A stretch of DNA of 48,737 nt from a phage: sequence record PZ452607.1, one strand, 5' to 3'. Each line of letters opens with the position of its first letter. Position 1 is the first letter of the stretch. The position numbers and the translations under genes are program-made. A model generated the notes under the pieces. It was not told the DNA's origin. It saw only the letters and a list, made by a program, of their open reading frames with translations, and made no database searches. Shown in pieces: positions 6,125 to 48,174 of the stretch.

Positions 6125-6144
6125 TTTAACAAAAAGTGCTATTA
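6125..6144 (-). promoter_or_regulatory. box copy, antisense orientation, late region
   Basis: Reverse complement reads AATAGCACTTTTTGTTAAAG; no convincing -10 at the usual spacing. Confidence 0.4.
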
Positions 6145-16073: not shown

Positions 16074-16097
16074 TAAATAGCACAAAAAGGTAAACAT
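16074..16097 (+). promoter_or_regulatory. degenerate box copy in leader of J-like gene
   Basis: ATAGCACAAAAAGGTAAAC; left half-site intact, right degenerate. Confidence 0.3.
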
Positions 16098-16098: not shown

Positions 16099-19000
16099 AT
16101 GATTCAAAAAGTGATAAGCGGATCTAAAGGTGGGTCACAGAAGCCTCATAACCCAGTTGAGATGGAGGACAATCTAATCTCAATCAACAAAATCAAGATC
16201 CTGTTAGCTGTATCTGATGGTGAAATTGACGAAACATTCAGCCTGAAGCAGTTGATGTTTAACTCAGTCCCGGTGCAAAACGAGGATGGCTCATTTAACT
16301 TCGAGGGAGTAAAGGCAGAGTTCAGACCGGGGACGCAGACTCAGGAATATATCAAGGGAATGGAAGATAGCTCTAGTGAGGTAACTGTAAATCGTGAGGT
16401 TACTACCGATAACCCATACACAATCTCAGTAACCAACAAAACGCTGTCGGCAATCCGTATCAAAATGTTCATGCCTCGCGGCGTACGAATTGAAAGTAAC
16501 GGTGATAAAAATGGCGTAAGAGTTGAGTATGAGGTGCAACAAGCTGTTGATGGCGGCTCGTTTGAGACGGTGCTCACCGATGTAATCGAAGGCAAAACAA
16601 TGTCAGGTTACGATCGAAGCAGACGTGTAAACCTACCTAACTTCAACAATCAGGTGATATTCAGAGTGGTTCGGAAAACTCCAGACTCTAACGACTCGAA
16701 CGTTGTTGACGCGATTCAGGTAAAGAGCTATGCCGAGGTGATTGATGCCAAATTCCGTTATCCGCTGACTGGTCTTCTTTTTGTCGAGTTTGATTCGAAG
16801 ATGTTCCCAAACCAGTTACCTACGATCTCAATTCGTAAGCGCTGGAAGATTGTAAACGTTCCGTCAAACTATGATCCAGAATCACGAACTTATAACGGAA
16901 ATTGGGATGGAACTTTTAAGAAGGCATGGACGAATAATCCGGCCTGGGTGCTTTATGACCTGATGATTAATCAGCGTTATGGCTTGGATCAGAAAGAGCT
17001 TGGTATCGCTGTAGATAAATGGGCGCTCTACGAGGCTGCGCAATATTGCGATCAGATGGTTCCTGATGGGAAGGGCGGGACGGAACCTCGATACCTTTGC
17101 GACGTGATAATCCAGTCTCAGACTGACGCTTACAAGGTTATCCGAGATATTTGCTCAATCTTTCGTGGTATGAGCTTTTGGAATGGTGAGAGCATTTCGG
17201 TAATCATCGACAGGCCGCGTGAACCTGCGTACATCTTCACTAACGACAACGTTGTTAATGGTGACTTCTCCTACACGTTCGCAAGCGAAAAGAGCATGTA
17301 CACGACGTGTAATGTGATGTTTGATGATGAACAAAACATGTATCAGCAGGACGTTGAGCCAGTATTCGATCGTGAGGCTACTCTACGGTTTGGGAACAAC
17401 GTTACGAGCATTACAGCGATCGGTTGCACACGTCGAAGCGAGGCCAACCGACGCGGGAGATGGATTCTGAAAACTAACCTCCGCAGCACTACGGTAAACT
17501 TCGCTACCGGGCTTGAGGGCATGATCCCAACAATCGGAGATGTTGTGGCAATAGCTGATAACTTCTGGTCAAGTAACTTGACAATGAACCTGTCAGGGCG
17601 TTTGCTCGAAGTGTCTGGAAGTCAGATTTTCTTGCCGTTCCGGGTGGATGCACGCGCTGGTGACTTTATTATCGTAAATAAGCCAGATGGCAAGCCTGTG
17701 AAGCGCACAATCTCAAGTGTTAGTGCGGATGGTAAGACTATAGAGGTTAACATTGGCTTTGGCTTTCCTGTGAAGCCTAACACGGTATTCGCTATCGACC
17801 GCACCGACATTGCGTTACAGCAGTACGTCGTGACAAAAATCGATAAGGGCGATGATGATGAGGAATTTACCTACAAAATAACGGCGGTGGAGTACGATCC
17901 TAACAAGTATGATGAGATTGATTACGGAGTTAACATCGACGACCGACCGACGAGCATCGTTGAACCAGATCAGATCCCTAGACCGAAAAATGTGCAAGTA
18001 TCCTCAGAGTCGAGAATCGTCCAGGGGATGAGCGTAGAAACGATGATTGTTAGCTGGGATAAAGTTCCGTACGCTGTTTTCTATGACGTCCAGTGGCGAA
18101 AGGATAACGGTAACTGGCAAAATGTACCGCAGACAGCAAACAAAGAGGTATACGTTGAAGGTATTTACGCTGGCAACTATCAGGTTCGCGTTCGCTCAGT
18201 CGCTGGTTCGGGCACGACTTCAGGCTGGTCAAATATCGTCGCGGCAACGTTGACGGGTAAACAGGGTGAACCGGGCCGAACGATTAACCTCACAGCTACG
18301 GATGATGTTGTTTTTGGTATCCGTACAAAATGGGGGTTCTCTGATGGTTCTGGAGATACAGCCTATACAGAGTTGCAACAGTCACCGGATGGAACAGTGG
18401 ATAACGCAAGTTTGCTTTCTTTGATTCCGTATCCGCAGCATGAGTATTATCACTCACCAATGCCTGGAGGGAATATTGTTTGGTATCGGGTAAGGACGGT
18501 TGACAGGATCGGTAACGTGTCTCAGTGGACTGATTTTGTCAGAGGTATGGCATCAACAAACGTTGACGATATCATTGGGGAGATTTCTGTTGATATCGAA
18601 AACTCACCTGGTTACGAGTGGCTTGTTGATAACGCAACAGACAACGCGGCGCAGAACTCAGCTAACGCAGAGGCAGCAATAGAAAACGCGCTCGCCAATG
18701 ACAAAGACGCGATCTACATGAAGAAGGAGAACGGAAAACGAAAAGCTGAGTACACGAAATCACTGAAACTTATTGCTGATGAGACGCAGGCACGAGTGAC
18801 GGCGATCGAGCAATTGAAGGCAAGTTTTGGCGATCAGATTAGCGCTAGCAACAGCGAGCTGCGTGAGGTTATCGCAACCGAGACTGAAGCACTATCGCGT
18901 GAGATTGACCAGCTTAAGGCTCAGATTGGTGACGATATTCAGGCAAGTCTGACTGATATTCGGGAGGCTATCGCGAACGAGACTGAGGCTAGAACGCAAG

Positions 19001-19518
19001 CTGACTTAACACTTAGCGCGCGGCTTGGAAATAACGAGGCGGCACTTGCTCAAAAACTAGACTCGTGGAGTAACGCGGATTCTACTGGTGCAATGTACGG
19101 TGTCAAGTTGGGTCTGAAATACAACGGCCAGGAATACAGTGCAGGCATGGCTATGTCTCTAGTTGGTTCCGGAGCTGCGGTTAAGGCGCAGATTTTGTTT
19201 GAGGCGTCACGATTTGCCATCATGACTGGAATGAATGGTCAGACTCAGTACCCCTTCGTTGTTGAGAATGGTCAGGTTATTTTAAGTAGCGCGATTATCA
19301 AGAACGGATTCATCACCAACGCAATGATTGGAAACTTCATCCAGTCGAATAACTATGTATTTAACAAGTCCGGATGGAGGCTTGACAAGGGTGGAACATT
19401 CGAAAATTACGGAAGTGACGGTGAGGGTGCAATGAAGCAAACTAATACCACAATATCTGTTAGGGATGCGAGTGGTCGCCTGAGGGTTCAGATTGGCAGG
19501 TTGACTGGCTCATGGTAA
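16099..19518 (+). CDS. tail tip host-specificity protein (lambda J-like central fibre)
   Basis: 1139-aa ORF after K/I homologues with own promoter; coiled segment near C-terminus. Confidence 0.8.
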   Translation: MIQKVISGSKGGSQKPHNPVEMEDNLISINKIKILLAVSDGEIDETFSLKQLMFNSVPVQNEDGSFNFEGVKAEFRPGTQTQEYIKGMEDSSSEVTVNREVTTDNPYTISVTNKTLSAIRIKMFMPRGVRIESNGDKNGVRVEYEVQQAVDGGSFETVLTDVIEGKTMSGYDRSRRVNLPNFNNQVIFRVVRKTPDSNDSNVVDAIQVKSYAEVIDAKFRYPLTGLLFVEFDSKMFPNQLPTISIRKRWKIVNVPSNYDPESRTYNGNWDGTFKKAWTNNPAWVLYDLMINQRYGLDQKELGIAVDKWALYEAAQYCDQMVPDGKGGTEPRYLCDVIIQSQTDAYKVIRDICSIFRGMSFWNGESISVIIDRPREPAYIFTNDNVVNGDFSYTFASEKSMYTTCNVMFDDEQNMYQQDVEPVFDREATLRFGNNVTSITAIGCTRRSEANRRGRWILKTNLRSTTVNFATGLEGMIPTIGDVVAIADNFWSSNLTMNLSGRLLEVSGSQIFLPFRVDARAGDFIIVNKPDGKPVKRTISSVSADGKTIEVNIGFGFPVKPNTVFAIDRTDIALQQYVVTKIDKGDDDEEFTYKITAVEYDPNKYDEIDYGVNIDDRPTSIVEPDQIPRPKNVQVSSESRIVQGMSVETMIVSWDKVPYAVFYDVQWRKDNGNWQNVPQTANKEVYVEGIYAGNYQVRVRSVAGSGTTSGWSNIVAATLTGKQGEPGRTINLTATDDVVFGIRTKWGFSDGSGDTAYTELQQSPDGTVDNASLLSLIPYPQHEYYHSPMPGGNIVWYRVRTVDRIGNVSQWTDFVRGMASTNVDDIIGEISVDIENSPGYEWLVDNATDNAAQNSANAEAAIENALANDKDAIYMKKENGKRKAEYTKSLKLIADETQARVTAIEQLKASFGDQISASNSELREVIATETEALSREIDQLKAQIGDDIQASLTDIREAIANETEARTQADLTLSARLGNNEAALAQKLDSWSNADSTGAMYGVKLGLKYNGQEYSAGMAMSLVGSGAAVKAQILFEASRFAIMTGMNGQTQYPFVVENGQVILSSAIIKNGFITNAMIGNFIQSNNYVFNKSGWRLDKGGTFENYGSDGEGAMKQTNTTISVRDASGRLRVQIGRLTGSW

Positions 19519-23167: not shown

Positions 23168-23590
23168 ATGCATATTATCACTGGCGAGATCCGCAAAGAA
23201 CCAAAGATTCTTGAACGTAACGGCGGCAATACTTATATTATCGAACTGGCAGAAAGCTATAAGCCTCGTGATGGCGATCGCGAATACACCAACTACACGT
23301 TCTTTTTTAGCGACGGTGGGAAGCCAGGCCTTGCTGACTGGTATCGTGAAGCGTTCCAAGTTGGTCGAGTTATCTCAGTATCGTGCGAGACGTTGAAGAT
23401 CTCATCACGCGAACACAACGGAATGATTTACAATTCATTGCAGGCGGCTGACTTCCCTAAACTAGTATTTAGTCAACGAGGTCAAAGCAACCAGCAACAA
23501 CGAGCGCCTCAGCAACAACAGCGTTCTCAGCAGCAATCACAACCACAACCAAATCAACAATCAACATTTGACGACGATATTCCATTCTAA
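23168..23590 (+). CDS. ssb: single-stranded DNA-binding protein
   Basis: OB-fold-sized N-domain, Gln/Pro-rich linker and acidic C-terminal tail ending DDDIPF. Confidence 0.7.
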   Translation: MHIITGEIRKEPKILERNGGNTYIIELAESYKPRDGDREYTNYTFFFSDGGKPGLADWYREAFQVGRVISVSCETLKISSREHNGMIYNSLQAADFPKLVFSQRGQSNQQQRAPQQQQRSQQQSQPQPNQQSTFDDDIPF

Positions 23591-23595
23591 AGAGA

Positions 23596-23619
23596 AGCCC
23601 CGCATTGCGGGGCTTTTTA
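23596..23619. terminator. bidirectional terminator between SSB and tail fibre genes
   Basis: AGCCCCGC attg CGGGGCT flanked by T-rich tracts on both strands. Confidence 0.55.
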
Positions 23620-23651
23620 TTACTTCATCTCAATTGCCTTCGGAAATGAGT

Positions 23652-25838
23652 CTACGTATTTTTTAAGCTTTCAACAAACTCTCCAGATACCATTCTTTCA
23701 TGATTTCTTTTGCACTCTTCAACCTTCTTGTTGTAAATCGAGTCATTAGGCATCTCAACTCGAACGCTAACAAAAACATCACTCGGAATGTCAATAGGAT
23801 CTCCGTCGCTATACCCATCCTTATGATTTCTTGCGAATGAAGGCGCGTTATCATGAGTTCTATGATAAGTCTTGATAACCAAAGACCCATCAGGGTTAAC
23901 ATCATAATCTACCCACAATATAGGCTGTCCGTTAATGTCTTTTGGTATCTCTATACCACCATTAACACCACCCCACGCTAGATCAGAATTTAGTGATAAA
24001 CACCCCCTTATCAAATACTCGCCAGTAGAAATCCTCTCAACTGTACAACCTTCGCTCTCGTCGTTTGTTCTATGGCTCCCGTTGCCAAAAATATCAACGA
24101 TGGGCGAGGCTCTTTTTATAAATCCGTTAGAGTCAACGGTTGTATTGCCTGTATTCCATATAACCTGGGTAGATTGCCATTGCCCCGCTCCTGTCTGTTT
24201 TCTGAGCCTCACATCCTTATAGTGTGGAGAGGTCATTGATGCGTCTTCAATAACAAAACCGAAAGCACTACCATCTCCTTGACCGTTTCTATGACGAACA
24301 GATATAGCTGTGACCCATCCAACAGAATTAACATTGTAACTTGCAAGGCTGCTAGGCTGAGATGATAAGGCGTTAACATAATCTACCCAGCTTGATTTCT
24401 CGTTAGATGCCGGACTTGATACAACGTTACCGGAAGAACTTGCCTGAAACGGTATCCACGGAGAAAACTTTGCATTATTGCCGTTTTTCATCCTTATGTA
24501 AAAAGTGCCGCGACCCGCTCTTGCGTATTCGTTTTGAGAATTTCCAGATTCTGGGTCAGTACCCAAATAAGTAAAAGGCGTAAATCTCTGAATGCAAGCG
24601 CTTGCACCGTTAGCTCCATTAGGAAGAACCTCAAGCATACCTGCCGTAGCCTCAGGATAGCCCCTACTAGCGGTAGCTAAAGCACTTGATGATTGCATAT
24701 ATATTCCAGGGCCATCACCTTCACCAGTTATTGAATCAAGATGTTTTTCCCCTAAGTTAGTTCTATCAAGTTTGTAAACCTTTAGGCTTGTCCTTGCCTG
24801 CTCCTCGGTAGTTCCACCAGTGCCACCAAAATTAACCCCTAGAGCCTTGTTTTCACTTCCATCATGAGTCATGGCGCCCCAGTCGCCGCTATCCTTGACT
24901 ATCAGCTTAAATCCGGTCCTATCGTCATTTGAATAGATTTCCGTTAAATCTCCGCGAGGTTGATTTAATCTATTTACTGCTAGATTTTTCTTTGATTGCT
25001 CCTTGTCAGCAAGGCCAGAAAGATTTCCGTCCTTAGTTAAAAGATTGTCAGCATTAACGCTATTTGCTGCGTCCTGAGCTTCCTGAGCACTTACCGCTGC
25101 CGCGTCTTTAGCGCTAACCGCCGCATCGCGTGCTGCCTGGGCATCGTTTTTTGCTGAGGTTGCAGTTTGCGCCGCAGTCTGAGCATCATTAACATAGCCA
25201 GATAGATCGCCTTTAGCGTCATTGATTGCCTGAATGGCCGCCGCCTCTTCAGAGTTAATATGCGTAACGGCTGAATTTTCTTTTTGCTGCACATTAGTGA
25301 TAGCCTTGTCTTTTGCTGCATTAATGCTACCAATAGCGCTATCTGAGATTTGCTGCGTCTGGTTTTTTATTGAGATAGACTCGTCACGCGCTGAATTAGC
25401 TGAGTCGCGAGCAAGCTCCGCTTGATTCTGCGCAGCTTCTGCGGCTGATTTGTTTGACTTAATTTCTTGAACGATATTGTTCAGGTTGTCCATATCAAGA
25501 TCGGCAATAATATCCAATGCCGATGCGATCTCAGTCTCTTTGCTCTGGTAGTACCGAAGCGTCTCAGCGACGTTTTGCGCAAGACCGTTAACGGTCAATG
25601 AATCGTTAAGCAAGATCACATACTTACCGTCAGCGGCAGTCTGACCATCCGTAGAGATAGCCTTTAGCTCTGTGTCGCTCACAATGTCGCTGATTACCGC
25701 CAGTTTAATTGGTTGCTCCAGGAATACGATAGTTGCACCGACTCGAATCAGAGCAAGCTGATCTTTCCATTTTGTATCGGTTCCGTGAACCGTACCGTCT
25801 GCATCCATTGATGCAGTACCGCGTCTATATAAAGCCAT
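23652..25838 (-). CDS. tail fibre protein
   Basis: 728 aa; Ala/Gln/Ser-rich repetitive fibrous middle region and Gly-rich C-terminal domain; own promoter. Confidence 0.6.
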   Translation of the reverse strand: MALYRRGTASMDADGTVHGTDTKWKDQLALIRVGATIVFLEQPIKLAVISDIVSDTELKAISTDGQTAADGKYVILLNDSLTVNGLAQNVAETLRYYQSKETEIASALDIIADLDMDNLNNIVQEIKSNKSAAEAAQNQAELARDSANSARDESISIKNQTQQISDSAIGSINAAKDKAITNVQQKENSAVTHINSEEAAAIQAINDAKGDLSGYVNDAQTAAQTATSAKNDAQAARDAAVSAKDAAAVSAQEAQDAANSVNADNLLTKDGNLSGLADKEQSKKNLAVNRLNQPRGDLTEIYSNDDRTGFKLIVKDSGDWGAMTHDGSENKALGVNFGGTGGTTEEQARTSLKVYKLDRTNLGEKHLDSITGEGDGPGIYMQSSSALATASRGYPEATAGMLEVLPNGANGASACIQRFTPFTYLGTDPESGNSQNEYARAGRGTFYIRMKNGNNAKFSPWIPFQASSSGNVVSSPASNEKSSWVDYVNALSSQPSSLASYNVNSVGWVTAISVRHRNGQGDGSAFGFVIEDASMTSPHYKDVRLRKQTGAGQWQSTQVIWNTGNTTVDSNGFIKRASPIVDIFGNGSHRTNDESEGCTVERISTGEYLIRGCLSLNSDLAWGGVNGGIEIPKDINGQPILWVDYDVNPDGSLVIKTYHRTHDNAPSFARNHKDGYSDGDPIDIPSDVFVSVRVEMPNDSIYNKKVEECKRNHERMVSGEFVESLKNT

Positions 25839-25857
25839 AGTATAAACTCCTTAAGTA

Positions 25858-25878
25858 AATAGCACGAATTGCTAAGCA
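25858..25878 (+). promoter_or_regulatory. box copy within tail-fibre leader
   Basis: AAATAGCACGAATTGCTAAGC; lies downstream of the minus-strand fibre promoter. Confidence 0.4.
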
Positions 25879-25881
25879 ATG

Positions 25882-25910
25882 ATTTTATCATTGTGATACC
25901 TGCCTTGCAA
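25882..25910 (-). promoter_or_regulatory. sigma70-like promoter for tail fibre gene (TTGCAA-17-TAAAAT)
   Basis: Hexamers on minus strand; box copy lies in the predicted 5' UTR. Confidence 0.5.
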
Positions 25911-25914
25911 TGGG

Positions 25915-25939
25915 CAATAAAAAACCGCCCGAAGGCGGT
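25915..25939 (-). terminator. intrinsic terminator of primase gene
   Basis: ACCGCC cgaa GGCGGT then T-run on minus strand. Confidence 0.5.
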
Positions 25940-26874
25940 TAGAGTAGGTCACTTGCTGAGAATAATTTGGCTTGCATTCCTGAGCGGTATCCTCCGGGAT
26001 TCGGTATGATTATTTTTAATTGTCTGTCGTCTGCCATGTACAAGGTATCCTTGTCTGAAGGTTCACACGCCACCCTTACCTCTCGATCACCTTTATACCT
26101 GTATGCAACCATTTCGAGGTTTTCAGGGGTGAAGCAGGCCCATACCTCTTGCTTTGTGTGAAATGCAATATGCTGAGCATCAATCCAGTTAAGGCATAAG
26201 TAGATCGCCTTTTCAGTTTTACCAGTCACGGCAACCGAGCAACTCGTGTATTTCTTCGCATAAAATGACTCTCTTCCTTCTTCATCAATAATCAAAATAT
26301 TGCAAAACTCATCATCAAGCCCATCCTCGTGCACAAGTTGACACGGTATAGTGTGAAATACGCTCTCTCTTCCATCCTCGCTACGCTTTATACCGACATC
26401 GAATGATTCGGTGGGTAGTGACTCAAACACGCTCAACGGCGTATTTACACGTTTCTCTGTGCGCTCCATAACCTTCATCACCGCCTCATGTTCAGCCATC
26501 ATGACATTGACACCTGACACCGGAGTCCGGCGCGCTTTCTTGTTTGCCTTGACGATGTATTCCTGCGGAACCTTTCCGAGAAATCTTCCCAGGATGTTTA
26601 CGCATTCGCTGTACGGCATACCAGTCAACTTCATCAGCCAGCCAATACCAGAGTCGTTACCGCATGAGTTGCAGATCGCACCGCCGTCGCCCGGGGTGTT
26701 CAGGTTATCAGTCCAGCGAAATCGGTCTTTACCGCCGCAGTTGGGGCAGGGTTGGTGCTTCTTATTAAAAACATTATTCGGCAATCCGCAGATTGATTGG
26801 AAAGCCTCGCGCCATAACCCCTTCATGTACGGTAAAACGTCCTCTTTCTGAAACATCATAAATTCTTCGTTCAC
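25939..26874 (-). CDS. DNA primase-like protein (Zn-ribbon plus probable TOPRIM)
   Basis: CPNCGG...CNSCG zinc ribbon near N-terminus; acidic-motif region; replication gene neighbourhood. Confidence 0.5.
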   Translation of the reverse strand: MNEEFMMFQKEDVLPYMKGLWREAFQSICGLPNNVFNKKHQPCPNCGGKDRFRWTDNLNTPGDGGAICNSCGNDSGIGWLMKLTGMPYSECVNILGRFLGKVPQEYIVKANKKARRTPVSGVNVMMAEHEAVMKVMERTEKRVNTPLSVFESLPTESFDVGIKRSEDGRESVFHTIPCQLVHEDGLDDEFCNILIIDEEGRESFYAKKYTSCSVAVTGKTEKAIYLCLNWIDAQHIAFHTKQEVWACFTPENLEMVAYRYKGDREVRVACEPSDKDTLYMADDRQLKIIIPNPGGYRSGMQAKLFSASDLL

Positions 26875-26935: not shown

Positions 26936-27388
26936 TTAACTAAAAATGCTATTGGTCGTTCCGATATCTTCCCTCTTCACGACGCGCATAAATTTCTTGT
27001 TCTTGCATCGCTTCTCAAGGCACTTGCCGTTACCGTCAAACTTCAGGTCGAATCGCAACCATGCGGCCCTAAACCCTTTGCACCCCTGTCGGCGGTAAGC
27101 ACGATGCGCAGCTTCAGCGCCTTGCCATGAAATCATATTGCGTTCTTTCCAGCCTTGCACCGTCTGATTGCTAACCTTCAGAGCCTTTGCGCAGGCCGCC
27201 GGGCCGCCGTAATATTCGATAAGGGCATCAAGTCGCGCTCGCAGTCCGGCGCGCGTTTCTTCTTTATGAATATAGAACCCGCAACGCTGGCGAGGCTTTT
27301 TATCTTTACCGCGCCGTGTTCCGTTGTTACCATTGATGTGACGTTTATCGATTTCACCAGTTGACTCTGCGATACGTTGAATACTCAT
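26936..27388 (-). CDS. putative HTH DNA-binding protein
   Basis: Segment GGPAACAKALKVSNQTVQGWK resembles an HTH; basic protein; divergent from helicase gene. Confidence 0.4.
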   Translation of the reverse strand: MSIQRIAESTGEIDKRHINGNNGTRRGKDKKPRQRCGFYIHKEETRAGLRARLDALIEYYGGPAACAKALKVSNQTVQGWKERNMISWQGAEAAHRAYRRQGCKGFRAAWLRFDLKFDGNGKCLEKRCKNKKFMRVVKREDIGTTNSIFS

Positions 27389-27400
27389 CTTGATTCCCCT

Positions 27401-27444
27401 ATAGCACTTTTTGCTAAAAACGTTTACTTTATGCCGTGTATTAT
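27401..27444 (+). promoter_or_regulatory. box + hairpin + -10 element upstream of helicase
   Basis: ATAGCACTTTTTGCTAAAAAC, 22-nt spacer, TATTAT; inverted repeat AACGTTTAC/GTAAACGTT around -10. Confidence 0.5.
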
Positions 27445-27487
27445 AGCGTAAACGTTACAACGATTCAAAGGATTAATAGCCGTGACA

Positions 27488-29500
27488 ATGAACATTAAAA
27501 AACAGATTGCATTACTTGGCGATGACTATATAAAGAGAACTCAGGAGCGATTTACTGTTGGTGAGGTTGTTCCTTATCCGTACCAGGTTGTTGCTTATGC
27601 CGAGATCGCGAAACGCCTATCAAATTACGAGCATCCATTCTTCGTTAAAGCGTCTGTATCCGCAGGTAAGACAATCATCTTCGCTATGGTGGCAAAGCAG
27701 TGTCAGAAAATGGGCTTAAAAATGCTTGTCCTGGCTCGTCAGGGTGAGATTGTCGATCAGGATAGCGAAGAGATCGACAACTTTGGGGTAACGAACTCCA
27801 TCTTCTCAGCGTCACTTGGAATCAAGTCCTGCTACTTCCCGATCGTGGTTGGCTCAGAGGGTACTGTTGCAAATGGCCTCGACAATGAGTTAGCTGATTT
27901 CGTCCCGCATGTAATTGGGATCGACGAATGTCACCAGGTGGATTGGGAAGACCTTGCGCAAGCCATCGAGGGTAAGGAAACAATGGAACAAATGAGGGGC
28001 GAGAAAGGGAAAATTATCATGGACGGAGATATTCCCCTGATTGGTAATGATGGAAAGCCTTTGCTTGGAACTAAGCGCAGTCAGTACACGATCGTAATCA
28101 TGGAAATGATGCGGCGCTGTAAAAAGGTTCACGGTCACGATCTCAGAATATTTGGTATGACTGGATCTGAATTTCGTGGCGTAGTTCCTATTCTGGTAGA
28201 GAATCCGAAAGCATTGGGATTCTGGCGTGAGCGAGTAACTGATATCGACACAAACTATCTGATTGAGTTCGGCTCTGTCGTTCCGACTATATTCGGATCA
28301 ACAGACGGAGTTCATTACGATCTTGATAAGTTCAAGGCGTCTAGCGAGGACGGAGTGCAGGACTTTACAGAGAAAGACATGAAGGCTATGGAAGATGAGA
28401 TCCTTCATGATAAATCTCTGACTCAGCGAATCATGCAAATGGTCGCCAAAAAGGCAGAAGAACGCAATGCGGTCCTGATTACATGTGCTGGTGTGCGCCA
28501 CTGCAAAGAGGCAGCGGCAGCACTTCCTCCGGGAAGCACCTATGCAATTATTACTGGCGACACAGACAACAAAGCGCGCAAGAAGATTCTTGACGATGTA
28601 AGGGCCGGAAAAATTAAATACACCTTTCAGGTAATGGCGCTCACTACTGGCGTTAACGTTCCAAATTGGGATTTCAGTGTCATACTCCGCAAGATAGGAT
28701 CGCTCACTCTGTTGATTCAACTTTTGGGTAGGGGTATGCGACTGCTTAAATACTGGCAGGTTGCTGAAGGAATGGTTAAGCAGGACCATCTGGTATGGGA
28801 TTTTGCAGGTACGATGGATGAGCTGGGTCAGCTTTATTTCGATCCGATACTTGAGCAGGCGCAATTCCAGAAGCGTTTTGAAAACGGCAAAGATCCGAAA
28901 ACATGTCCGAAATGCGGTTGCGTAAATAGCTTCTATGCTCGACGATGCGTTAATGTCATTGATGGTGAGCGTTGCGATCATTTCTGGACTTCTCAGATTT
29001 GTGAGGACCAGGTTGACGAGCGAACCGGGAAAATCCTTGTTAAAGGATGCGGTGCAGAGAATGACGTTGTTGCGCGAGTCTGTCGTTGTTGTGATGCTTC
29101 TCTTGTCGATCCTAACCTGAAGTTATCCGGTAAGGCGTACACCAAGAATGACTGGTATGAAGTAAAGAATTTTGAGGTTACGCTAACCAAAAACCAGAAA
29201 GGCATAATATACAAATACACTCTGATTAACGACGATGGTGATGAGTTCAAGGCGTATGAAAAATTCTTCCCCGAGTCTGACTCTAAGATTTGCGGTACGC
29301 TATGGAAAACTAAAGGTGTACTTCCTCATGTGTCAGATCCTAAAATGCGCCGCTACTTTATCGGAATGAAGAACGCCATCAAGATTTTGCAATACTCACA
29401 TCATATTGCTCACCCGGTGCGCGTAACTCATCGTCGCAACCAGAAGAAAGAAGATATCATCTCACGCAAAGACTTCGGTATGGAGGATATCCCGGAATGA
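27488..29500 (+). CDS. superfamily-2 helicase with C-terminal Cys-rich zinc-binding region
   Basis: Walker A SAGKT, DECH box, later helicase motifs, C-terminal CxxC clusters; alternative GTG start at 27482. Confidence 0.7.
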   Translation: MNIKKQIALLGDDYIKRTQERFTVGEVVPYPYQVVAYAEIAKRLSNYEHPFFVKASVSAGKTIIFAMVAKQCQKMGLKMLVLARQGEIVDQDSEEIDNFGVTNSIFSASLGIKSCYFPIVVGSEGTVANGLDNELADFVPHVIGIDECHQVDWEDLAQAIEGKETMEQMRGEKGKIIMDGDIPLIGNDGKPLLGTKRSQYTIVIMEMMRRCKKVHGHDLRIFGMTGSEFRGVVPILVENPKALGFWRERVTDIDTNYLIEFGSVVPTIFGSTDGVHYDLDKFKASSEDGVQDFTEKDMKAMEDEILHDKSLTQRIMQMVAKKAEERNAVLITCAGVRHCKEAAAALPPGSTYAIITGDTDNKARKKILDDVRAGKIKYTFQVMALTTGVNVPNWDFSVILRKIGSLTLLIQLLGRGMRLLKYWQVAEGMVKQDHLVWDFAGTMDELGQLYFDPILEQAQFQKRFENGKDPKTCPKCGCVNSFYARRCVNVIDGERCDHFWTSQICEDQVDERTGKILVKGCGAENDVVARVCRCCDASLVDPNLKLSGKAYTKNDWYEVKNFEVTLTKNQKGIIYKYTLINDDGDEFKAYEKFFPESDSKICGTLWKTKGVLPHVSDPKMRRYFIGMKNAIKILQYSHHIAHPVRVTHRRNQKKEDIISRKDFGMEDIPE

Positions 29501-29913
29501 TTACAGACAAAGGTGATTATTTAGAATTTTACGAGAGAGACACAAGCGACACTCGAAAGGAGGATGCTCATCAGGTGGATTGTGTATCTTGGCTGAAATA
29601 CAATTTTCCTCACCTTCTATTTTGGCACACTGTCAATGAAGGTGAAAAAACAATCACATCGGCGCTCAGGGATGAGCAGGCAGGATTACTTAAAGGCGTG
29701 TCAGACTTCGTTATCCTGATTGGTGTTAACTCACGATACCCGTTTGCAGCAATCGAACTTAAGCGGGTTAATAAGTCAGGCAAAGGAAAGGCGTCACCAG
29801 TCAGCGACAAGCAAAGGGAATTTCTCCAAAAGGTCAGGGAGCGTGGCGGCTTCTCTGCCGTCGCATACGGATTCGGGCAATTCAAGATCGCAATTTACGA
29901 AATGATGAAATAG
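29497..29913 (+). CDS. VRR-NUC domain nuclease
   Basis: PD-(D/E)xK-like D..ELK core; overlaps helicase stop, a common helicase/VRR-NUC pairing. Confidence 0.55.
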   Translation: MITDKGDYLEFYERDTSDTRKEDAHQVDCVSWLKYNFPHLLFWHTVNEGEKTITSALRDEQAGLLKGVSDFVILIGVNSRYPFAAIELKRVNKSGKGKASPVSDKQREFLQKVRERGGFSAVAYGFGQFKIAIYEMMK

Positions 29914-29953
29914 CACTTTTTGTTAAAACTGCCGGGATGGAATCTGGCATTAT
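29909..29953 (+). promoter_or_regulatory. box + -10 element upstream of methyltransferase
   Basis: AATAGCACTTTTTGTTAAAAC, 22 nt, CATTAT; TAG of box is the stop of VRR-NUC gene. Confidence 0.45.
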
Positions 29954-29980
29954 TATCTCACCAAAACGAGAGGAATAAAA

Positions 29981-30694
29981 ATGAAAGACTTTAATGATAT
30001 CGAAACTATCGACTTTGCAGAAACTGGTTGCTCATTCACTCGCGAAGCAATAGCATCAGGCGGTTATTATCAGGCATTGAAAACGCCAACCTGTAAAGAG
30101 ATTTCAGGGCGTCGATACAAGGGGACAAATACCCCTGACGCTGTTCGTGATTTATGGTCAACTCCGCGAGAGGTTATTGCATACCTTGAGGGTCGTTATG
30201 GGAAATATGATCTCGACGCTGCGGCAAGCGAAGAAAATAAAGTTTGCGAGAAGTTTTACTCTCAGGAAACAAACTGCTTAAAACGTTGGTGGGGAAAGAA
30301 TAAGCACGTTTGGTTAAATCCTCCTTATAGCCGACCTGATATATTTGTCAAGAAGGCCATTGAGCAAATGGAGCACAACAATCAGATCGATATGCTTTTA
30401 CCTGCAGATAACTCTACTGCGTGGTTTACTGAAGCGCGGCAGAACGCAGCTGAAATAATCTGGATTGAAGCGGACTTGACTGAGGATATTGACGGCAATG
30501 AATACGCACGATCCGGTCGCCTGGCTTTCATATCCGGTGAAACTGGAAAGGCCGTAGACGGTAATAACAAAGGTTCGGTAATTTTTATTATGCGCGAACT
30601 TAAAGAAGGTGAGGTGCAACAGACTCACTACATCCCAATCACAAGCATTTGCCCTTCGGTGAAAAACAAACGAGCAAAGGTGAGGAAAGTATGA
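29981..30694 (+). CDS. DNA N6-adenine methyltransferase (Dam-type, NPPY motif)
   Basis: Catalytic NPPY motif and upstream SAM-binding-like region. Confidence 0.65.
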   Translation: MKDFNDIETIDFAETGCSFTREAIASGGYYQALKTPTCKEISGRRYKGTNTPDAVRDLWSTPREVIAYLEGRYGKYDLDAAASEENKVCEKFYSQETNCLKRWWGKNKHVWLNPPYSRPDIFVKKAIEQMEHNNQIDMLLPADNSTAWFTEARQNAAEIIWIEADLTEDIDGNEYARSGRLAFISGETGKAVDGNNKGSVIFIMRELKEGEVQQTHYIPITSICPSVKNKRAKVRKV

Positions 30695-30942
30695 TGAGCG
30701 AAAAAATGGTTCCTGTTAAATTAACTGAGCAAGGTTTATGGCTACTTTATCGAGCTACGTGCTGCGAAATTATGGAGCGAAACGGATTGACTCAGGATGT
30801 TATTGGTTGCGATCTGTGGGAGTTCACTAGTTCTCTTGATATGTCTTTCGATGAGATAAAAAATGAATACATAGAGAACTGGCCTTCAATCATACAGAAA
30901 GACGTGGAAGAACTTAAAGCTGATACAATCGTACAGCACTAA
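30691..30942 (+). CDS. hypothetical protein
   Basis: RBS GGTGAGGA; ATGA overlap with previous gene. Confidence 0.4.
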   Translation: MMSEKMVPVKLTEQGLWLLYRATCCEIMERNGLTQDVIGCDLWEFTSSLDMSFDEIKNEYIENWPSIIQKDVEELKADTIVQH

Positions 30943-30976
30943 TTGCTAAAACTACCCGGCGAAAGTCGGGTATAGT
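30935..30976 (+). promoter_or_regulatory. box + hairpin + -10 element
   Basis: AGCACTAATTGCTAAAAC, 22 nt, TATAGT; hairpin ACCCGGC gaaa GTCGGGT. Confidence 0.5.
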
Positions 30977-31008
30977 TATTTCATAGAAACGAAATGAGGA
31001 ATCAGAAG

Positions 31009-31218
31009 ATGGCACGCATTAACGCAAACTTTTTCAATATCGCTCAGCAGTCCGCAAAAATGGCTGTTCATATTACGAACAAGCAAGGCGGCAACTTCGA
31101 TTGGGATATTGCTATGAACTTCCTTAAAATGTCTTATTACCGTTGCTCAGTTGAAGAAGTCGAAGGCTTCATCTCTGACGTGGAGAAATTAACTAATGCT
31201 GATAAAAAAGCAAGGTAA
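31009..31218 (+). CDS. hypothetical protein
   Basis: RBS GAGGAA before ATG 31009; preceded by box/-10 element. Confidence 0.4.
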   Translation: MARINANFFNIAQQSAKMAVHITNKQGGNFDWDIAMNFLKMSYYRCSVEEVEGFISDVEKLTNADKKAR

Positions 31219-31468
31219 GCGCGAAGTGTGGGAGCACGCAAAGGAATGCGGCATCTCAGACGATATAGCATTAATTGCTAAATACTTTGATATAAAGGAT
31301 GTTAGCATTATATCAAACGGCAAGATTTCATTTATGGAAGGTATGCCGAGAAAAATGCAAAGAGTTCCAGCCACTCCATCACTTGAGTTTTACCGCGAAG
31401 AGGGAAAGAGAATTGAGCGAGAAAGAAAATCCACAAAAAACGGCAAGTCTTCCAGGCTTAAATATTAA
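31196..31468 (+). CDS. hypothetical protein
   Basis: ORF overlapping end of previous gene. Confidence 0.3.
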   Translation: MLIKKQGKREVWEHAKECGISDDIALIAKYFDIKDVSIISNGKISFMEGMPRKMQRVPATPSLEFYREEGKRIERERKSTKNGKSSRLKY

Positions 31469-31778
31469 TGCGGACGAATAACAGGCAATATGGATCGGGA
31501 AAAAGCAGGTTAAGCAAATCCCTTTCTCTGACTGGTTGCCACCTGACTTTGTTAATGTGCTTTGCACTATCGGTATTGAGCAGGAGTTGCATATAGGTTA
31601 CTACTCACCTGGCCGAAACAGTATGATGCTTGAGGTTGACGGAAAGCTCGTTGAGTTTAAATCTTCAGATCTAGGATTCTGGTTAAAGGCTGTGGCATGA
31701 AACTTTATTTTGCTGTAGTATTAACACCGCTAATTTCATTTTCAGTAATGTATTTCATTATCATGTAAGGATTAAAAT

Positions 31779-32912
31779 ATGTCACAAGCTAAAATCACTA
31801 CCGAGCAACTTATCGAAGAGCGCATGAGCGGCCTGACACTTCGCGAGATCGCGGAAAAGTACGGTATGCACATTCGCACTGTCGAGGCGCGTCACGCAAA
31901 ACTTGCAAAAGAAGGCCACTTCCACGGCAACGAGCATGTTGCTAAGATGGTTCCGGAAGGCTTCATGGTAAAAGGCACGTCAACCATGATTGACGCGGAA
32001 GGTAACGAGAAGATTCGTTGGGTTAAGACATCAGTTGATAATGAGCGCCTTGAGGTTCTAATGGAAAAAGCGCGTGAAGCATTCTGTTCAGAGTTGCCTA
32101 AGGCTATTCCATCTGAATCACCTGACGTTAGTTTTGATGAAGACACGCTTGCGATGTATCCAGTTTTTGATTTGCACATTGGTGCTCTTGCTCACAAACA
32201 TGAGTGCGGCGAAAACTACGACACAGCGACAGCAGAGAAGGTTATGAATGGGTTCTTTGACTACGCTGTAGATAAGGCGCCAAACTCAAAGAATGCCGTA
32301 TTGGTATTGGGTGGCGATTTCCTACATTACGACTCTTTGGAGTCTAAGACTCCAGCGTCAGGCCATTACTTAGATTCTGACAGTCGTTACGCTAAGCTTG
32401 TTTATGTCGCAATCCGATCAGTACGACGCGCAGTCTCTCGAATGCTGGAGAAGCACCAAGTTATTGATATTAAAGCAATAAGTGGGAATCACGACGAATC
32501 AGGGATGGTTTGGTTGCGCGCTGCGCTTGCTGCATTTTATGAAGATGAGCCGCGCGTAAATGTTGATGTTAGCCCTGCCGCAATGATGATGACCAGCTTT
32601 GGTAAGACCCTTATTGGATACACTCACGGGCATCAAATGCGAAAAGCAGATACTCGACTAAGTGTTATGGCAACTGATTTTCGTAAGTTGTTTGGTCAAA
32701 GTGATTACGTTTACACGCATAGCGGTCACTGGCACAGTCAAAAGATTACAGAAACAAACTTGGGTATTGATGAGGTTCATGGTCAGCTTGGAAGTCCTGA
32801 CGCATACTCTGCCAATGGCGGTTGGAGGTCTCAGCGTCAAGCTGCTGTGATTGTCTATCACAAGGAATTTGGTGAGGTTGGACGATTCATTTGTCGACCT
32901 GAAATGTTCTAA
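31779..32912 (+). CDS. calcineurin-like metallophosphoesterase with N-terminal HTH-like region
   Basis: Motifs DxH (DLHIG), GDxxD (GGDFLHYD), GNHD, GH, GHxH (HSGHWH) in canonical order. Confidence 0.6.
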   Translation: MSQAKITTEQLIEERMSGLTLREIAEKYGMHIRTVEARHAKLAKEGHFHGNEHVAKMVPEGFMVKGTSTMIDAEGNEKIRWVKTSVDNERLEVLMEKAREAFCSELPKAIPSESPDVSFDEDTLAMYPVFDLHIGALAHKHECGENYDTATAEKVMNGFFDYAVDKAPNSKNAVLVLGGDFLHYDSLESKTPASGHYLDSDSRYAKLVYVAIRSVRRAVSRMLEKHQVIDIKAISGNHDESGMVWLRAALAAFYEDEPRVNVDVSPAAMMMTSFGKTLIGYTHGHQMRKADTRLSVMATDFRKLFGQSDYVYTHSGHWHSQKITETNLGIDEVHGQLGSPDAYSANGGWRSQRQAAVIVYHKEFGEVGRFICRPEMF

Positions 32913-32956
32913 ATAGCACCTTTTGTTAAAACAGTACCCGCGAAAGCGGGTATTAT
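32913..32956 (+). promoter_or_regulatory. box + hairpin + -10 element upstream of HNH gene
   Basis: ATAGCACCTTTTGTTAAAAC, 22 nt, TATTAT; hairpin ACCCGC gaaa GCGGGT. Confidence 0.5.
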
Positions 32957-32984
32957 TGTTTTATAGAAACAAGAGGAGATTGCA

Positions 32985-33467
32985 ATGAACTGGCACGAGC
33001 ATTACGAATATAGGGATGGTGTTCTATATCACAAGGTAAAGCCATGCAGAAGGCATGATGTAAATATTGGGGATGTTGCTGGAAGGGTTGCCAAAAACGG
33101 CTATCACTATGTTGTTCACAAGAACAGGCCGTATAAGAGATCTCGAGTTATATGGGAGATGTTTAATGGTGAGATACCAGATGGTTTTGTTATAGATCAT
33201 CTGAATCACAATGCCACCGATGATAGGATCGATAACCTTGAGTGTAAGCCAAGAAGAGAGAATATGGTTAATGTTAAGTTAAGGATTGATAGCACGACCG
33301 GAGTAACTGGCGTATCAATAAAGAGGGATAACAAGTGGAGGGCGTACATAACAATTATGGGTAAGCAGAAGTGCAAGAGCTTTGACACGTTTGAGGAAGC
33401 TTGCGCGCAGAGGATTGAATGGTCAGTAACTCATGATTTTCACCCAAATCACGGTGGAACATACTAA
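32985..33467 (+). CDS. HNH homing endonuclease
   Basis: HNH core (DHLNHN..DDRIDNLE) plus AP2-like DNA-binding tail; paralogous to 37042..37581 and 45258..45752. Confidence 0.75.
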   Translation: MNWHEHYEYRDGVLYHKVKPCRRHDVNIGDVAGRVAKNGYHYVVHKNRPYKRSRVIWEMFNGEIPDGFVIDHLNHNATDDRIDNLECKPRRENMVNVKLRIDSTTGVTGVSIKRDNKWRAYITIMGKQKCKSFDTFEEACAQRIEWSVTHDFHPNHGGTY

Positions 33468-33485
33468 TAGCACCTTTTACCTAAC
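33466..33485 (+). promoter_or_regulatory. degenerate box copy
   Basis: AATAGCACCTTTTACCTAAC directly after HNH stop. Confidence 0.3.
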
Positions 33486-33539
33486 CCGCGCCACAGAAGT
33501 GCGGCATAGTAACCACATCGAAAACAGAGATGCTATATC

Positions 33540-33716
33540 ATGAAGATAGTCAAGTGCATCCGAAATGACTCCAAAACACTTCCATTCCGTGTAAATCAGA
33601 TCTATAGTGTTGGTTATGATTTCGGTGGGGGATTATTTGAGATTTACGACGGACGAGGTTCAGCAATCCAGACTCCTCTGAACGGTCACTACCTGGAATT
33701 TATTGAGATAGATTAA
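33540..33716 (+). CDS. small hypothetical protein (58 aa)
   Basis: Short ORF (not in track) followed by hairpin terminator; no strong RBS. Confidence 0.3.
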   Translation: MKIVKCIRNDSKTLPFRVNQIYSVGYDFGGGLFEIYDGRGSAIQTPLNGHYLEFIEID

Positions 33717-33737
33717 CAATAGCATTCATCACCTTAC

Positions 33738-33769
33738 AGGCTGGCATGATTTACATGCTGGCCTTTTTG
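33738..33769 (+). terminator. intrinsic terminator
   Basis: AGGCTGGCATG..CATGCTGGCCT stem (two wobble pairs) then T5. Confidence 0.45.
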
Positions 33770-33771
33770 CG

Positions 33772-33800
33772 TTGTGTCAAATAAATTTGAAGGTTAAAAT
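33772..33800 (+). promoter_or_regulatory. sigma70-like promoter for lysis cassette (TTGTGT-17-TAAAAT)
   Basis: Hexamers with 17-nt spacer about 35 nt upstream of holin ATG. Confidence 0.4.
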
Positions 33801-33834
33801 CGACTCACTTGTTCAAAAAATATATGGTGAGATT

Positions 33835-34050
33835 ATGAAAGAGTTTTTAACGGCTGCTACGTCAAGCACTGGCGGTGCTTCGTTGGTAGGGGCGGCGACA
33901 GGGCAACTTTATATTGCTGGCGCTACATTCATTTGCTTTCTGCTTTTTGGTGCCTGGGGAGCGTACTGGAAGTATCGTGATAGCAAGGCAATTCAGGAAG
34001 CGTTAAACGATGGCGATCTAAATAAGGCGCTTAAGATCAGGGGGAGATAA
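33835..34050 (+). CDS. holin
   Basis: 71-aa protein with hydrophobic TMD, immediately upstream of endolysin; RBS GGTGAG. Confidence 0.45.
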
Positions 34051-34538
34051 TGAGTTTAAAAAATAACGTTATAGGCGCATCAATCGGGGCCGCTTTGACG
34101 TTGACACCTACCCTACTGGAACGGATCGAAGGTATAGAATACGAGGTTTATTACGATATCGCCGGAGTCCCTACCGTATGCAGCGGAATAACCGGGCCTG
34201 ACGTCATACCTGGTAAGAAATACACTAAGCGAGAATGCGATGCATTGCTGATAAAACATATCGGCGTCGCTCAGCGATACGTTGACAAGAAGGTTAAGGT
34301 TGACATTCCGGTAACTATGCGCGCATCACTGTATAGCTTCACTTTCAACGTTGGGACTGGCGCTTTCGGATCGTCTACAATGCTTAAGCTAATCAATCAG
34401 CGCAAGCACAAAGAAGCGTGTAATCAGTTATGGCGATGGGTATACTACTACAACCCAAAAACCAAAAAGCGCGAAGTGTCGAGAGGGATCAAGAATCGGC
34501 GCGCTGAAGAATACGCATATTGCGTTAAGGAACTATAA
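34050..34538 (+). CDS. endolysin (lysozyme, GH24-like)
   Basis: Catalytic triad spacing E-x8-D-x5-T ([13 protein letters not shown]); ATGA overlap with holin. Confidence 0.7.
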
Positions 34539-34939
34539 TGAAACTTAAGAAAACGTGCATTGCAATTACGGTTGCTGTTGGTGTGATTTCTCTATCCGGT
34601 TGTTCGACGGCATCTGCTCTGAGTGGTTTACTTTCTGACTCCCCGGATGTTACGGCGCAGGTTGGCGCTGAGAACACAAAACAACTAGCAGGAGTAACAG
34701 CAAAGGCGGATGATAAGCGAGAAGTGAAGGTGAGTGATTCAAATATTGGCAAGATTGACTCATCCGTCAAGAAGTCCGTGGAGGTGTCAACCATTCAGGC
34801 CAACACGGTTAACGCTGAAAGCATCACAGTAACCAAATCTGGAAGCTGGTACGATCCTGTGGTTTGCTGGATTCTCGTTTTTATTGTCCTGTTGCTGTTT
34901 TATTTTTTAATTCGTAAGCACGAAAAAAAGGAGGCGTAA
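34538..34939 (+). CDS. unimolecular spanin (lipoprotein with C-terminal TMD)
   Basis: Lipobox LSGC at N-terminus and a single C-terminal TMD, the T1 gp11-type architecture. Confidence 0.6.
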   Translation: MKLKKTCIAITVAVGVISLSGCSTASALSGLLSDSPDVTAQVGAENTKQLAGVTAKADDKREVKVSDSNIGKIDSSVKKSVEVSTIQANTVNAESITVTKSGSWYDPVVCWILVFIVLLLFYFLIRKHEKKEA

Positions 34940-35469: not shown

Positions 35470-35473
35470 ATTA

Positions 35474-38284: not shown

Positions 38285-38287
38285 TAA

Positions 38288-43934: not shown

Positions 43935-44153
43935 ATGGCTACTATCATGACAGTAGAAGATGCAGCACGCGATGCAGTGGAAGGAATGCGCCCAAATACC
44001 TCCAGAATAGCACACTACTACAAATCTGAGGTGTCGGTAGTGCAATTGGTCCACGAAATTTTAAGGCTCCCACAAGTCGATTCAGCGCGCGTTGTGACGT
44101 GCTTAAAAAATTATTTTTGCATCACTATTAAAACGAATAGCACGAATTGCTAA
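43935..44153 (+). CDS. hypothetical protein
   Basis: 72-aa ORF; 3' end reads through box copy; overlaps a possible 36-aa hydrophobic ORF at 43840..43950. Confidence 0.3.
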   Translation: MATIMTVEDAARDAVEGMRPNTSRIAHYYKSEVSVVQLVHEILRLPQVDSARVVTCLKNYFCITIKTNSTNC

Positions 44154-44210: not shown

Positions 44211-44657
44211 ATGAAACACTTAATCTGCATTGAAGCGCCTAACGATCAATACACCCTGCATGGACTTGGTGTGTTCAAAGGTCACTACATTACCGCAGGA
44301 ACTTACGATGCTCGTCGCGGCGATGGCGACCTAATGATTACGTCAAAAGAAGTAAATCCGTACATCATGCAGAATCTTGGCAATAACGAATATATGGCCT
44401 ATGGCTGCAACGCGGTGTACAAGCACGTTAAGATCCGCAAGCGTGTTGTGCGTGCATTCAAGAAGATTGCAATTAAATACTGGAAAATGAGCAAGAAAGA
44501 TGCCGGACGTTGGGCGCGCAACGTTGCAGATTCATACTTCTATCGTAACGGCGAATCCTGCTACTTCCTGATCGATGAACTTATGGAAAACTACGGTGGC
44601 GACTTCAGCCAGGGTAGCTTTGATGACTGGGCCAACTATGAGATCAGTTGCTGGTAA
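44211..44657 (+). CDS. hypothetical protein
   Basis: RBS GAGGAAG; box/hairpin/-10 element upstream. Confidence 0.45.
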   Translation: MKHLICIEAPNDQYTLHGLGVFKGHYITAGTYDARRGDGDLMITSKEVNPYIMQNLGNNEYMAYGCNAVYKHVKIRKRVVRAFKKIAIKYWKMSKKDAGRWARNVADSYFYRNGESCYFLIDELMENYGGDFSQGSFDDWANYEISCW

Positions 44658-48114: not shown

Positions 48115-48156
48115 CCCGCTCCGGCGGGTTTTTTTATGCCTGCAATATGGTAAAAT
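48115..48156 (+). promoter_or_regulatory. terminator hairpin then extended -10 promoter (TGgTAAAAT) upstream of terminase small subunit
   Basis: CCCGC tccg GCGGG then T7 (same family as 13849/16028 hairpins); TGGTAAAAT at 48148..48156. Confidence 0.45.
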
Positions 48157-48174
48157 AGCACTAAATGTTAAACA
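48156..48174 (+). promoter_or_regulatory. degenerate box copy in leader of terminase small subunit gene
   Basis: ATAGCACTAAATGTTAAAC directly after the extended -10. Confidence 0.35.

Follow-up and report, generated by a model that had tools for sequence, protein, structure and literature searches.

An inverted, conserved copy of the Drexlerviridae repeat over the predicted start site of the side tail fibre promoter of phage T1, a putative operator

The phage DNA analysed here (sequence record PZ452607.1, 48,737 nucleotides, hereafter the window) is the genome of Escherichia phage T1 in circular permutation, with terL as its first gene; this text concerns the control region of its lateral (side) tail fibre gene, in which a copy of a short repeated sequence, the box, lies over the predicted transcription start. 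The region 23400-26200 is 99.9% identical to the T1 sequences AY216660, NC_005833, and MK213796. The fibre gene, T1 orf26, is located amid early recombination and replication genes, and its product is assigned to the phage lateral tail fibres by homology to tail-fibre families. The protein matches PHROG 1591 (tail fibre) over its full length (1e-149), residues 565-698 form a C-terminal Pfam domain PF25670 (Phage_tail_C_2), and the N-terminal 100 amino acids (aa) are present in 848 phage records, mostly of Drexlerviridae. The unit comprises the following features, listed along the minus strand with the basis of each call; distances are in nucleotides (nt).

25915..25940, minus strand: intrinsic terminator of the primase transcript, directly upstream of the fibre promoter (fold; annotated in AY216660)
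25905..25910, minus strand: -35 hexamer TTGCAA, separated by a 17-nt spacer from the -10 (sequence; invariant in 13 relatives)
25893..25899, minus strand: degenerate box half-site in the promoter spacer (alignment of relatives)
25882..25890, minus strand: extended -10 TGaTAAAAT, with TAAAAT at 25887-25882 and TG at 25890-25889 (sequence; invariant in 13 relatives)
25859..25875: box core, TTAGCAATTCGTGCTAT in the fibre sense and canonical ATAGCACGAATTGCTAA on the plus strand (motif scans; footprint)
25847..25852, minus strand: Shine-Dalgarno (SD) sequence AAGGAG, 8 nt before the ATG (sequence; annotated ribosome-binding site in AY216660; invariant in 13 relatives)
23652..25838, minus strand: lateral tail fibre gene, 728 aa, T1 orf26 (open reading frame list, T1 identity, PHROG, Pfam)
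23589..23621, both strands: terminator hairpin common to the converging ssb (plus) and fibre (minus) genes (folds on both strands)

As proposed in the initial annotation, the fibre gene is isolated between two terminators on the minus strand, with the caveat that the downstream one is primarily the plus-strand terminator of ssb. The upstream hairpin AACCGCC-TTCG-GGCGGTT (25940-25923, minus strand) is followed by TTTTTTATT and folds at -11.8 kcal/mol (z -3.9). The downstream hairpin (23596-23614) folds at -20.4 kcal/mol on the plus strand, where it has a UUUUUAUU tail and is annotated as the ssb terminator (AY216660), and at -17.7 kcal/mol on the minus strand, where the tail is UUCUCUUU. Both flanking elements thus combine a hairpin with a U-tract, the minus-strand tail downstream being suboptimal, and the downstream terminator of the fibre unit is probably shared and bidirectional.

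The promoter elements TTGCAA-17-TAAAAT are located where they had been placed before, and their description as near-consensus was too generous: the hexamers match the consensus at 9 of 12 positions (4/6 in the -35 and 5/6 in the -10), with TGn in addition. Such a match alone proves nothing, because matches of this level are not above chance (21 found in a 10-kb scan versus 17 expected from shuffled sequences). The support comes from conservation, since neither hexamer has a variable column (0/6 each) in 13 related genomes. With TGn and TAnnnT, a -35 at 17 nt, and this conservation, the elements conform to a sigma-70 extended -10 promoter, and equivalent TGnTACAAT or TGaTATAAT elements occur upstream of fibre genes in other genera. 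The half-site in the spacer reads GTATCAC in T1, ATAGCAC in several relatives, and ATAGCAA in TLS-like phages.

Two further elements overlap the fibre -10 in T1. It is surrounded by a perfect 17-nt palindrome, CAATGATAAAATCATTG (25876-25892, minus strand; CAATGAT-AAA-ATCATTG), which was rejected as a Fur-box-like or hairpin-like element, being specific to T1 and not kept in 12 related genomes. The annotated T1 orf25 (47 aa, 25748-25891, minus strand) has its ATG inside the -10 (aATGATAAAAT), reads through the box and the SD sequence, and runs over the fibre start in another frame; it begins before the predicted start of the transcript and is unlikely to be a gene.

The box begins 6 nt after the -10, covers the predicted positions +1 to +17 with its centre at about +9, and ends 6 nt before the SD sequence and 20 nt from the ATG, which bears out the earlier placement of it in the predicted 5' untranslated region, downstream of the -10. 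The 21-mer at 25858-25878 has 5 matches with at most 3 mismatches versus 0 expected, and the 17-mer core at 25859-25875 has 13 at the same threshold versus 0.2 expected, four other copies being identical in 17/17 positions. The fibre copy scores 30.7 bits on a position weight matrix and by its sequence belongs to the ATAGCACnnnTTGnTAA repeat of Drexlerviridae; it carries the 'G' (GAA) subtype core, as do the four identical T1 copies. The core is a pseudo-dyad, TAGCA-N5-TGCTA, imperfect because the right half-site accepts C or T. In its dyad symmetry and its overlap with the polymerase footprint, reckoned from the predicted +1 to +17, the fibre box resembles an operator. It departs from the repeat in two respects. 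Copies of the repeat run along the transcription of the downstream gene, whereas this one is inverted relative to its gene, with the canonical sense on the plus strand and the fibre gene on the minus strand; and it is followed neither by a TAnnnT at 22-23 nt nor by a start codon at about 65-76 nt, as canonical copies are. A sigma-54 promoter (TGGCAC-N5-TTGCA) was rejected, as the box TAGCAC-N3-TTGCTA has AG for GG and a spacing 2 nt too short.

Conservation of this arrangement was assessed by phylogenetic footprinting of 13 Tunavirus loci (12 distinct sequences). A search for related loci with the primase protein reached close relatives only. Variable columns number 0/6 in the -35, the -10, and the SD sequence and 1/17 in the box, at its central base, versus 8/17 in the promoter spacer, 4/6 in the gap between -10 and box, and 3/7 in the gap between SD sequence and ATG. 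The footprint is clear, and the fibre box is by this alignment under purifying selection. Moreover, the composite of a terminator, TGnTAnAAT, 5-13 nt, TTAGCAAnnnGTGCTAT, and an SD sequence recurs in Rtpvirus, LF82-19, Eclunavirus, Warwickvirus, Nouzillyvirus, and one Tlsvirus, in intergenic sequences that are otherwise unalignable with T1. The fibre promoters of these distant phages are as follows.

Rtp (Braunvirinae): -10 TGcTACAAT, gap of 5 nt, inverted box TTAGCAAttcGTGCTAT
LF82-19: -10 TGaTATAAT, gap of 5 nt, inverted box same as in Rtp
Ec_L1 (Eclunavirus): -10 TGgTACAAT, gap of 5 nt, inverted box TTAGCAAaatGTGCTAT
ESCO41 (Nouzillyvirus): -10 TGaTACAAT, gap of 5 nt, box with one mismatch
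mar001J1 (Warwickvirus): -10 TGcTATTAT, gap of 11 nt, inverted box TTAGCAAaaaGTGCTAT
Salmonella phage UTK0006 (Tlsvirus): -10 CATAAT, gap of 13 nt, inverted box TTAACAAaaaATGCTAT

The family to which the fibre box belongs has been published as a 21-nt direct repeat, aaATAGCACnnnTTGnTAAAA, reported for TLS and noted for T1, Rtp, and Rogue1, whose copies are oriented with transcription, some 76 nt ahead of the start codons, and for which the TLS authors suggested stoperator, enhancer, or UP-like roles (PMC11447400). Read in the gene sense, the box is aaATAGCACnnnTTG(C/T)TAAAA, that is, the published TLS repeat. The fibre copy shares this sequence with the published repeats, but it is inverted, close to its ATG, and placed after the -10 instead of before; neither the inverted fibre-promoter copy nor the fixed distance to the -10 described below is in that report (PMC11447400). 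About 24 copies were found in the window by a position-weight scan. Of the 23 T1 copies scored, 16 have a TAnnnT hexamer (frequently with TGn before it) 22 (sometimes 23) nt past TTG(C/T)TA, and the listed flanks of the 19, 14, and 14 copies of TLS, Rtp, and Rogue1, respectively, have by inspection the same -10 spacing; the sequence of the intervening 22 nt is not conserved. With this spacing, TTGCTA was rejected as a -35 element with a 17-nt spacer. If transcription is taken to start 7 nt after the -10, the canonical box spans about -50 to -34, which is an activator-type position and not that of a -35 element. Class II activators occupy the same place, and so does lambda OR2 with respect to PRM. 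The initial annotation had rightly set the fibre box outside the usual geometry, and had noticed neither the inversion nor the 22-nt rule of that geometry. The canonical copy used for reference is that of the orf65 promoter.

44137..44153, plus strand: canonical box of the orf65 promoter, a 17-mer identical to the fibre copy and 22 nt upstream of TATGAT

The canonical promoters have two further regularities. The 42 nt after the box form a stable hairpin with the -10 in its loop or 3' arm (16 promoters in window positions 27401-46340; mean z -3.6, with 14/16 copies below -1.5, for example 43345-43386, 44674-44715, and 46341-46382), and similar hairpins are visible in TLS, Rtp, and Rogue1. A promoter's own transcript would be free of this hairpin, because the predicted start is 3' of it. 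In addition, a motif (C/T)CATC(G/A)A(A/C)A about 6 nt after the -10, seen at most canonical promoters of T1, TLS, Rtp, and Rogue1, is likely to correspond to the start site and the first transcribed nucleotides.

The fibre box is not the only copy in a non-canonical position. Where three copies outside the usual geometry had been counted before, at least six were found, at the major capsid protein (MCP) gene (6126), the tape-measure chaperone (9890), J (16077), the fibre (25859), the pir leader (27401), and terS (48155). Four of them are as follows.

6126..6142, minus strand: inverted box constituting the spacer of the MCP promoter TTGACG-16-TATTAT (promoter annotated in AY216660)
16077..16093, plus strand: weak forward box in the gpJ leader, 14 nt after TATAAT (kept in TLS)
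27401..27417: box between pir (minus) and helicase (plus), canonical for the helicase and inverted in the pir leader at about +17 to +33
48155..48171, plus strand: forward box ggTAAAATAGCAC overlapping the -10 and the start of the terS promoter, 17 nt before the ATG

The late promoters of terS, MCP, and J thus carry the box over the core promoter or the start, like the fibre promoter, which supports an operator role for the fibre copy, and the MCP arrangement is kept in TLS (L020, about 15010-15045). Late or autoregulated units of T1 repeatedly carry a box on the core promoter or the start site. Some local details were also observed. In the MCP promoter (6118-6145, plus strand), GTGCTAT of the box provides TGnTAT of an extended -10. 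The inverted box of the chaperone lies just before the SD sequence and has TAAGAT exactly 22 nt downstream in the box sense (9860-9906, minus strand), and is possibly a canonical promoter that would transcribe the major tail gene in antisense. The promoters of pir (minus) and helicase (plus) (27388-27482) are face to face and have one -10 stretch, TATTATA/TATAATA (27439-27445), in common; if one of them is activated, the other could therefore be shut by competition.

Published reporter data bear on both positions of the box. Laganenka et al. combined T1 promoter-gfp fusions with plasmid-borne Pir (orf23) and Orf65 (PMC6737242), and we mapped the primers of these reporters onto the window to place the boxes in the fragments. 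The two regulators are encoded as follows.

44211..44657, plus strand: orf65, candidate box-binding regulator (PMC6737242)
26936..27388, minus strand: pir (orf23), Cro/C2-like helix-turn-helix regulator and second candidate binder (Pfam and PHROG; PMC6737242)

The Porf65 reporter (44128-44228, 101 bp) has 9 nt ahead of a box that matches the fibre 17-mer in full, and this box is the only upstream element in the fragment; this promoter was activated by Orf65 and unaffected by Pir (PMC6737242). The Ppir reporter (27546-27366) has the box downstream of the predicted pir start, which makes the pir leader box the closest experimentally tested analogue of the fibre copy, and this promoter was repressed by both Orf65 and Pir (PMC6737242). 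Pdam, which carries a canonical box, was activated by Pir; Phol and PrecE, in which the box scan found no box, respond to Pir as well (PMC6737242). With the boxes so placed, the Orf65 data fit a rule by which a box upstream activates and a box in the leader represses, in both tested cases. Regardless of which protein is the reader, the only promoter assayed with a leader box is repressed.

Taken together, we propose, with moderate confidence, that the fibre box is an operator that blocks RNA polymerase. The fibre gene would be a self-contained late unit set in the early and replication region, laid out as the primase terminator, a sigma-70 extended -10 promoter, the box, the SD sequence, the gene, and the shared terminator, and the box would be a 17-bp pseudo-dyad site for a sequence-specific factor. 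At some 16 early and middle promoters, which have no -35, the factor bound at about -50 to -34 would contact or help the polymerase; at the fibre promoter the site is turned round onto the predicted +1 to +17, and the bound factor would sterically prevent polymerase binding or escape. The fibre promoter, presumably constitutive alone, would be shut while the factor is abundant and open once it is titrated or lost. Late timing of the fibre would need such negative control because the promoter, as we infer, should be active unaided. Repression is favoured because of the overlap with the start site, the purifying selection, the recurrence in distant genera, and the repressed promoter with the box in the pir leader. 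The earlier suggestion that this copy might repress rather than activate is hence the best-supported reading, the sign of the effect at the fibre gene itself being a prediction.

Opposite outcomes from one kind of site are well known. In lambda, cI bound to one operator type is an activator of PRM from about -42 and, where the site overlaps PR, a repressor of that promoter. The T1 box resembles OR2/OR1 in being a 17-bp pseudo-dyad, and its -50 to -34 position coincides with that of OR2 relative to PRM; in contrast, the T1 sites are dispersed over about 24 loci, whereas those of lambda are clustered in one switch with cooperativity and an immunity function. At lac O1, repression is steric, with the operator centred near +11. 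The fibre box is likewise within the polymerase footprint, with its centre at about +9 of the predicted start, and, unlike the lac site, its type is also used upstream at other promoters. Protein p4 of phi29 activates the late promoter and represses early promoters, from far-upstream sites and through alpha-CTD (C-terminal domain) contacts. The likeness here is in opposite outcomes by position that serve temporal control; the repressing position in T1 would instead be at the start site, and the polarity, early on and late off, would be reversed.

Several observations weigh against this proposal. A literature search found no report of T1 transcript mapping. The early-on, late-off scheme must include a relief of the block, and none is visible in the sequence. 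The leader box is absent from the fibre loci of TLS, Citrobacter phage CF1, Rogue1, and two Weberviruses; several lineages lacking it keep one half-site, in the spacer or fused to the -10. As regards the protein, the Orf65 family was undetected by tblastn or hidden Markov model (HMM) in Rtp and Rogue1, both of which carry the box, Rtp with a fibre-leader copy as well. Pir has a recognition helix that varies among genera with an identical box, and it is inactive on the perfect box promoter Porf65 and yet regulates the box-less hol and recE. Finally, the box is near-identical across subfamilies whose proteins are about 50% identical, a hint that the reader may be encoded by the host.

The best candidate for the factor in T1 is Orf65, homologues of which, or of its C-terminal domain, occur in T1, IME347, SRT8, Motto, Ec_L1, and TLS (gp18). 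As a binder for the whole family it was rejected, given the negative searches in Rtp and Rogue1. A recognisable DNA-binding fold was likewise rejected for it: Orf65 has no Pfam match and no sequence match in the PDB, its AlphaFold model is poor (predicted local distance difference test, pLDDT, 59.6), and Foldseek against the PDB returned nothing below E 0.6. The protein has two parts, a variable beta-rich N-terminal half and a conserved helical C-terminal domain (RKRxxRAF...WAR...EISCW), and the latter stands alone as TLS gp18 (81 aa; L020, 5712-5954). Pir is conserved in T1, TLS, Rtp, and Rogue1 at 52-58% identity, and was rejected as the binder for its variable recognition helix and a published regulon that includes box-less promoters and excludes a perfect box promoter. 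As readers of the box, Pir, another phage protein, or a host factor are possible as well. Because more than one reader can be named, we commit ourselves to a mechanism at the DNA level and leave the protein uncommitted.

Among other explanations, a repressor at the box might shut every promoter in the manner of stoperators, for example in a carrier or lysogen-like state of T1, in which case the fibre copy would be one more silencing site and not a switch of opposite sign. Stoperators were indeed proposed by the TLS authors (PMC11447400), all T1 copies lie within or near the polymerase footprint (about -50 to +33), the canonical promoters have an extended -10 and might need no activator, and T1 can persist as an extrachromosomal prophage (PMC6737242). 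We nevertheless find such global silencing unlikely. A strict 22-nt spacing and a fixed orientation at about 16 promoters with unrelated spacers indicate that polymerase is contacted stereospecifically and not merely occluded; a minimal fragment beginning at the box is activated by Orf65, as the box-bearing dam promoter is by Pir (PMC6737242). The stoperators of mycobacteriophage L5, cited in the TLS paper, resemble the boxes in being many copies of a short site, mostly intergenic, but they are asymmetric, depend on orientation for their effect on elongation, and have no fixed relation to a -10, whereas the T1 boxes keep the 22 nt and have mixed orientation at late promoters; the boxes are accordingly not stoperators of the L5 type.

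Action at the RNA level, also suggested in the initial annotation, found no support and appears quite improbable. The transcribed box could form a hairpin or a protein site, or pair with the boxes of early transcripts, and so control translation or stability: a start at or before 25875 puts the whole box into a 37-nt leader, 6 nt upstream of the SD sequence, where it would be exactly complementary to four intergenic boxes in early read-through transcripts, and its dyad can form a 5-bp hairpin. However, at -6.6 kcal/mol (z 0.09) the fold of the leader is no more stable than that of shuffled sequences, and no Rfam match was found in it, the only matches being at the downstream terminator and below threshold. 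The MCP-spacer and terS -10 boxes are partly or wholly upstream of the start and outside any RNA, the leader copies have mixed orientation (terS and J forward), and the distance from box to SD sequence varies between genera.

The fibre box might, on the other hand, be a positive element. The distal half of the inverted box (TGcTATTTA, +12 to +20, non-template strand) could pause sigma-70 polymerase as a -10-like sequence, for the loading of a lambda-Q-like factor, or a bound factor could activate from downstream. GTGCTAT does resemble the beginning of an extended -10, and is part of the -10 itself (TGcTATTAT) in the MCP promoter and in the fibre promoters of Webervirus and Warwickvirus; the T1 late region is studded with terminators, which would suit antitermination; and five lineages share the gap of 5-6 nt that separates the -10 from the box. 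Against this, the critical last T is not conserved (TATTTA, TATTAA, TATGAG, TAAACA), Warwickvirus and UTK0006 have a wider gap of 11-13 nt, the annotation contains no Q-like gene, and the tested promoter with a leader box is repressed and not activated, so that we give this explanation, too, a low probability. The notion that the box is, or is the remains of, a rightward canonical promoter, which would yield RNA antisense to primase and be irrelevant to the fibre, is barely credible: the box is canonical on the plus strand and TGTGAT (4/6) lies 17 nt after TTGCTA, but this hexamer becomes TGTGCT in relatives, the canonical distance of 22 nt holds no -10 in the box sense (TACCTG in T1, TGTGCT or TATCAG in relatives, nothing -10-like in distant genera), no open reading frame is encoded that would be served rightward, and invariance amid varying flanks with recurrence in unalignable intergenic regions of other genera contradicts a relic.

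The phage, the fibre gene, and the repeat are already known, and the logic of one site with opposite outcomes is classical. In the literature searched, we found no description of the 22-nt rule, the inversion, or the family-wide box over the start site of the side-fibre promoter. A more far-reaching and rather doubtful idea is that the whole transcription programme of Drexlerviridae is run by one 17-bp site, with a reader so far unrecognised as a DNA-binding protein. This reader might be the fold-less Orf65 family, a different phage protein, or some component of the host that acts on polymerase. On this idea, the site would turn genes on at -50 to -34 of hairpin-embedded, -35-less extended -10 promoters and turn them off where it is mirrored onto the start of transcription, as at the side-fibre promoter and other late ones, and the fibre copy would be the clearest natural case of inverted sign in a new bifunctional phage promoter architecture. 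T1-like phages are frequent contaminants in laboratories and industry as well as therapy candidates, and their repeat has until now been published only as a sequence curiosity. The fixed activator-type position together with the mirrored start-site copy makes it a defined system, with a testable timing model for an embedded late gene. For engineering, where the fibre is the host-range determinant that is swapped, the native control region offers a handle of only about 100 bp (25839-25940).

Some differences between the window and the T1 reference were also recorded. They amount to about 35 single-nucleotide polymorphisms genome-wide, and gpJ (16099-19518) has 1139 aa here versus 1172 aa in AY216660, the difference being a 99-bp in-frame deletion inside a direct repeat at about 18862-18986 of the window.

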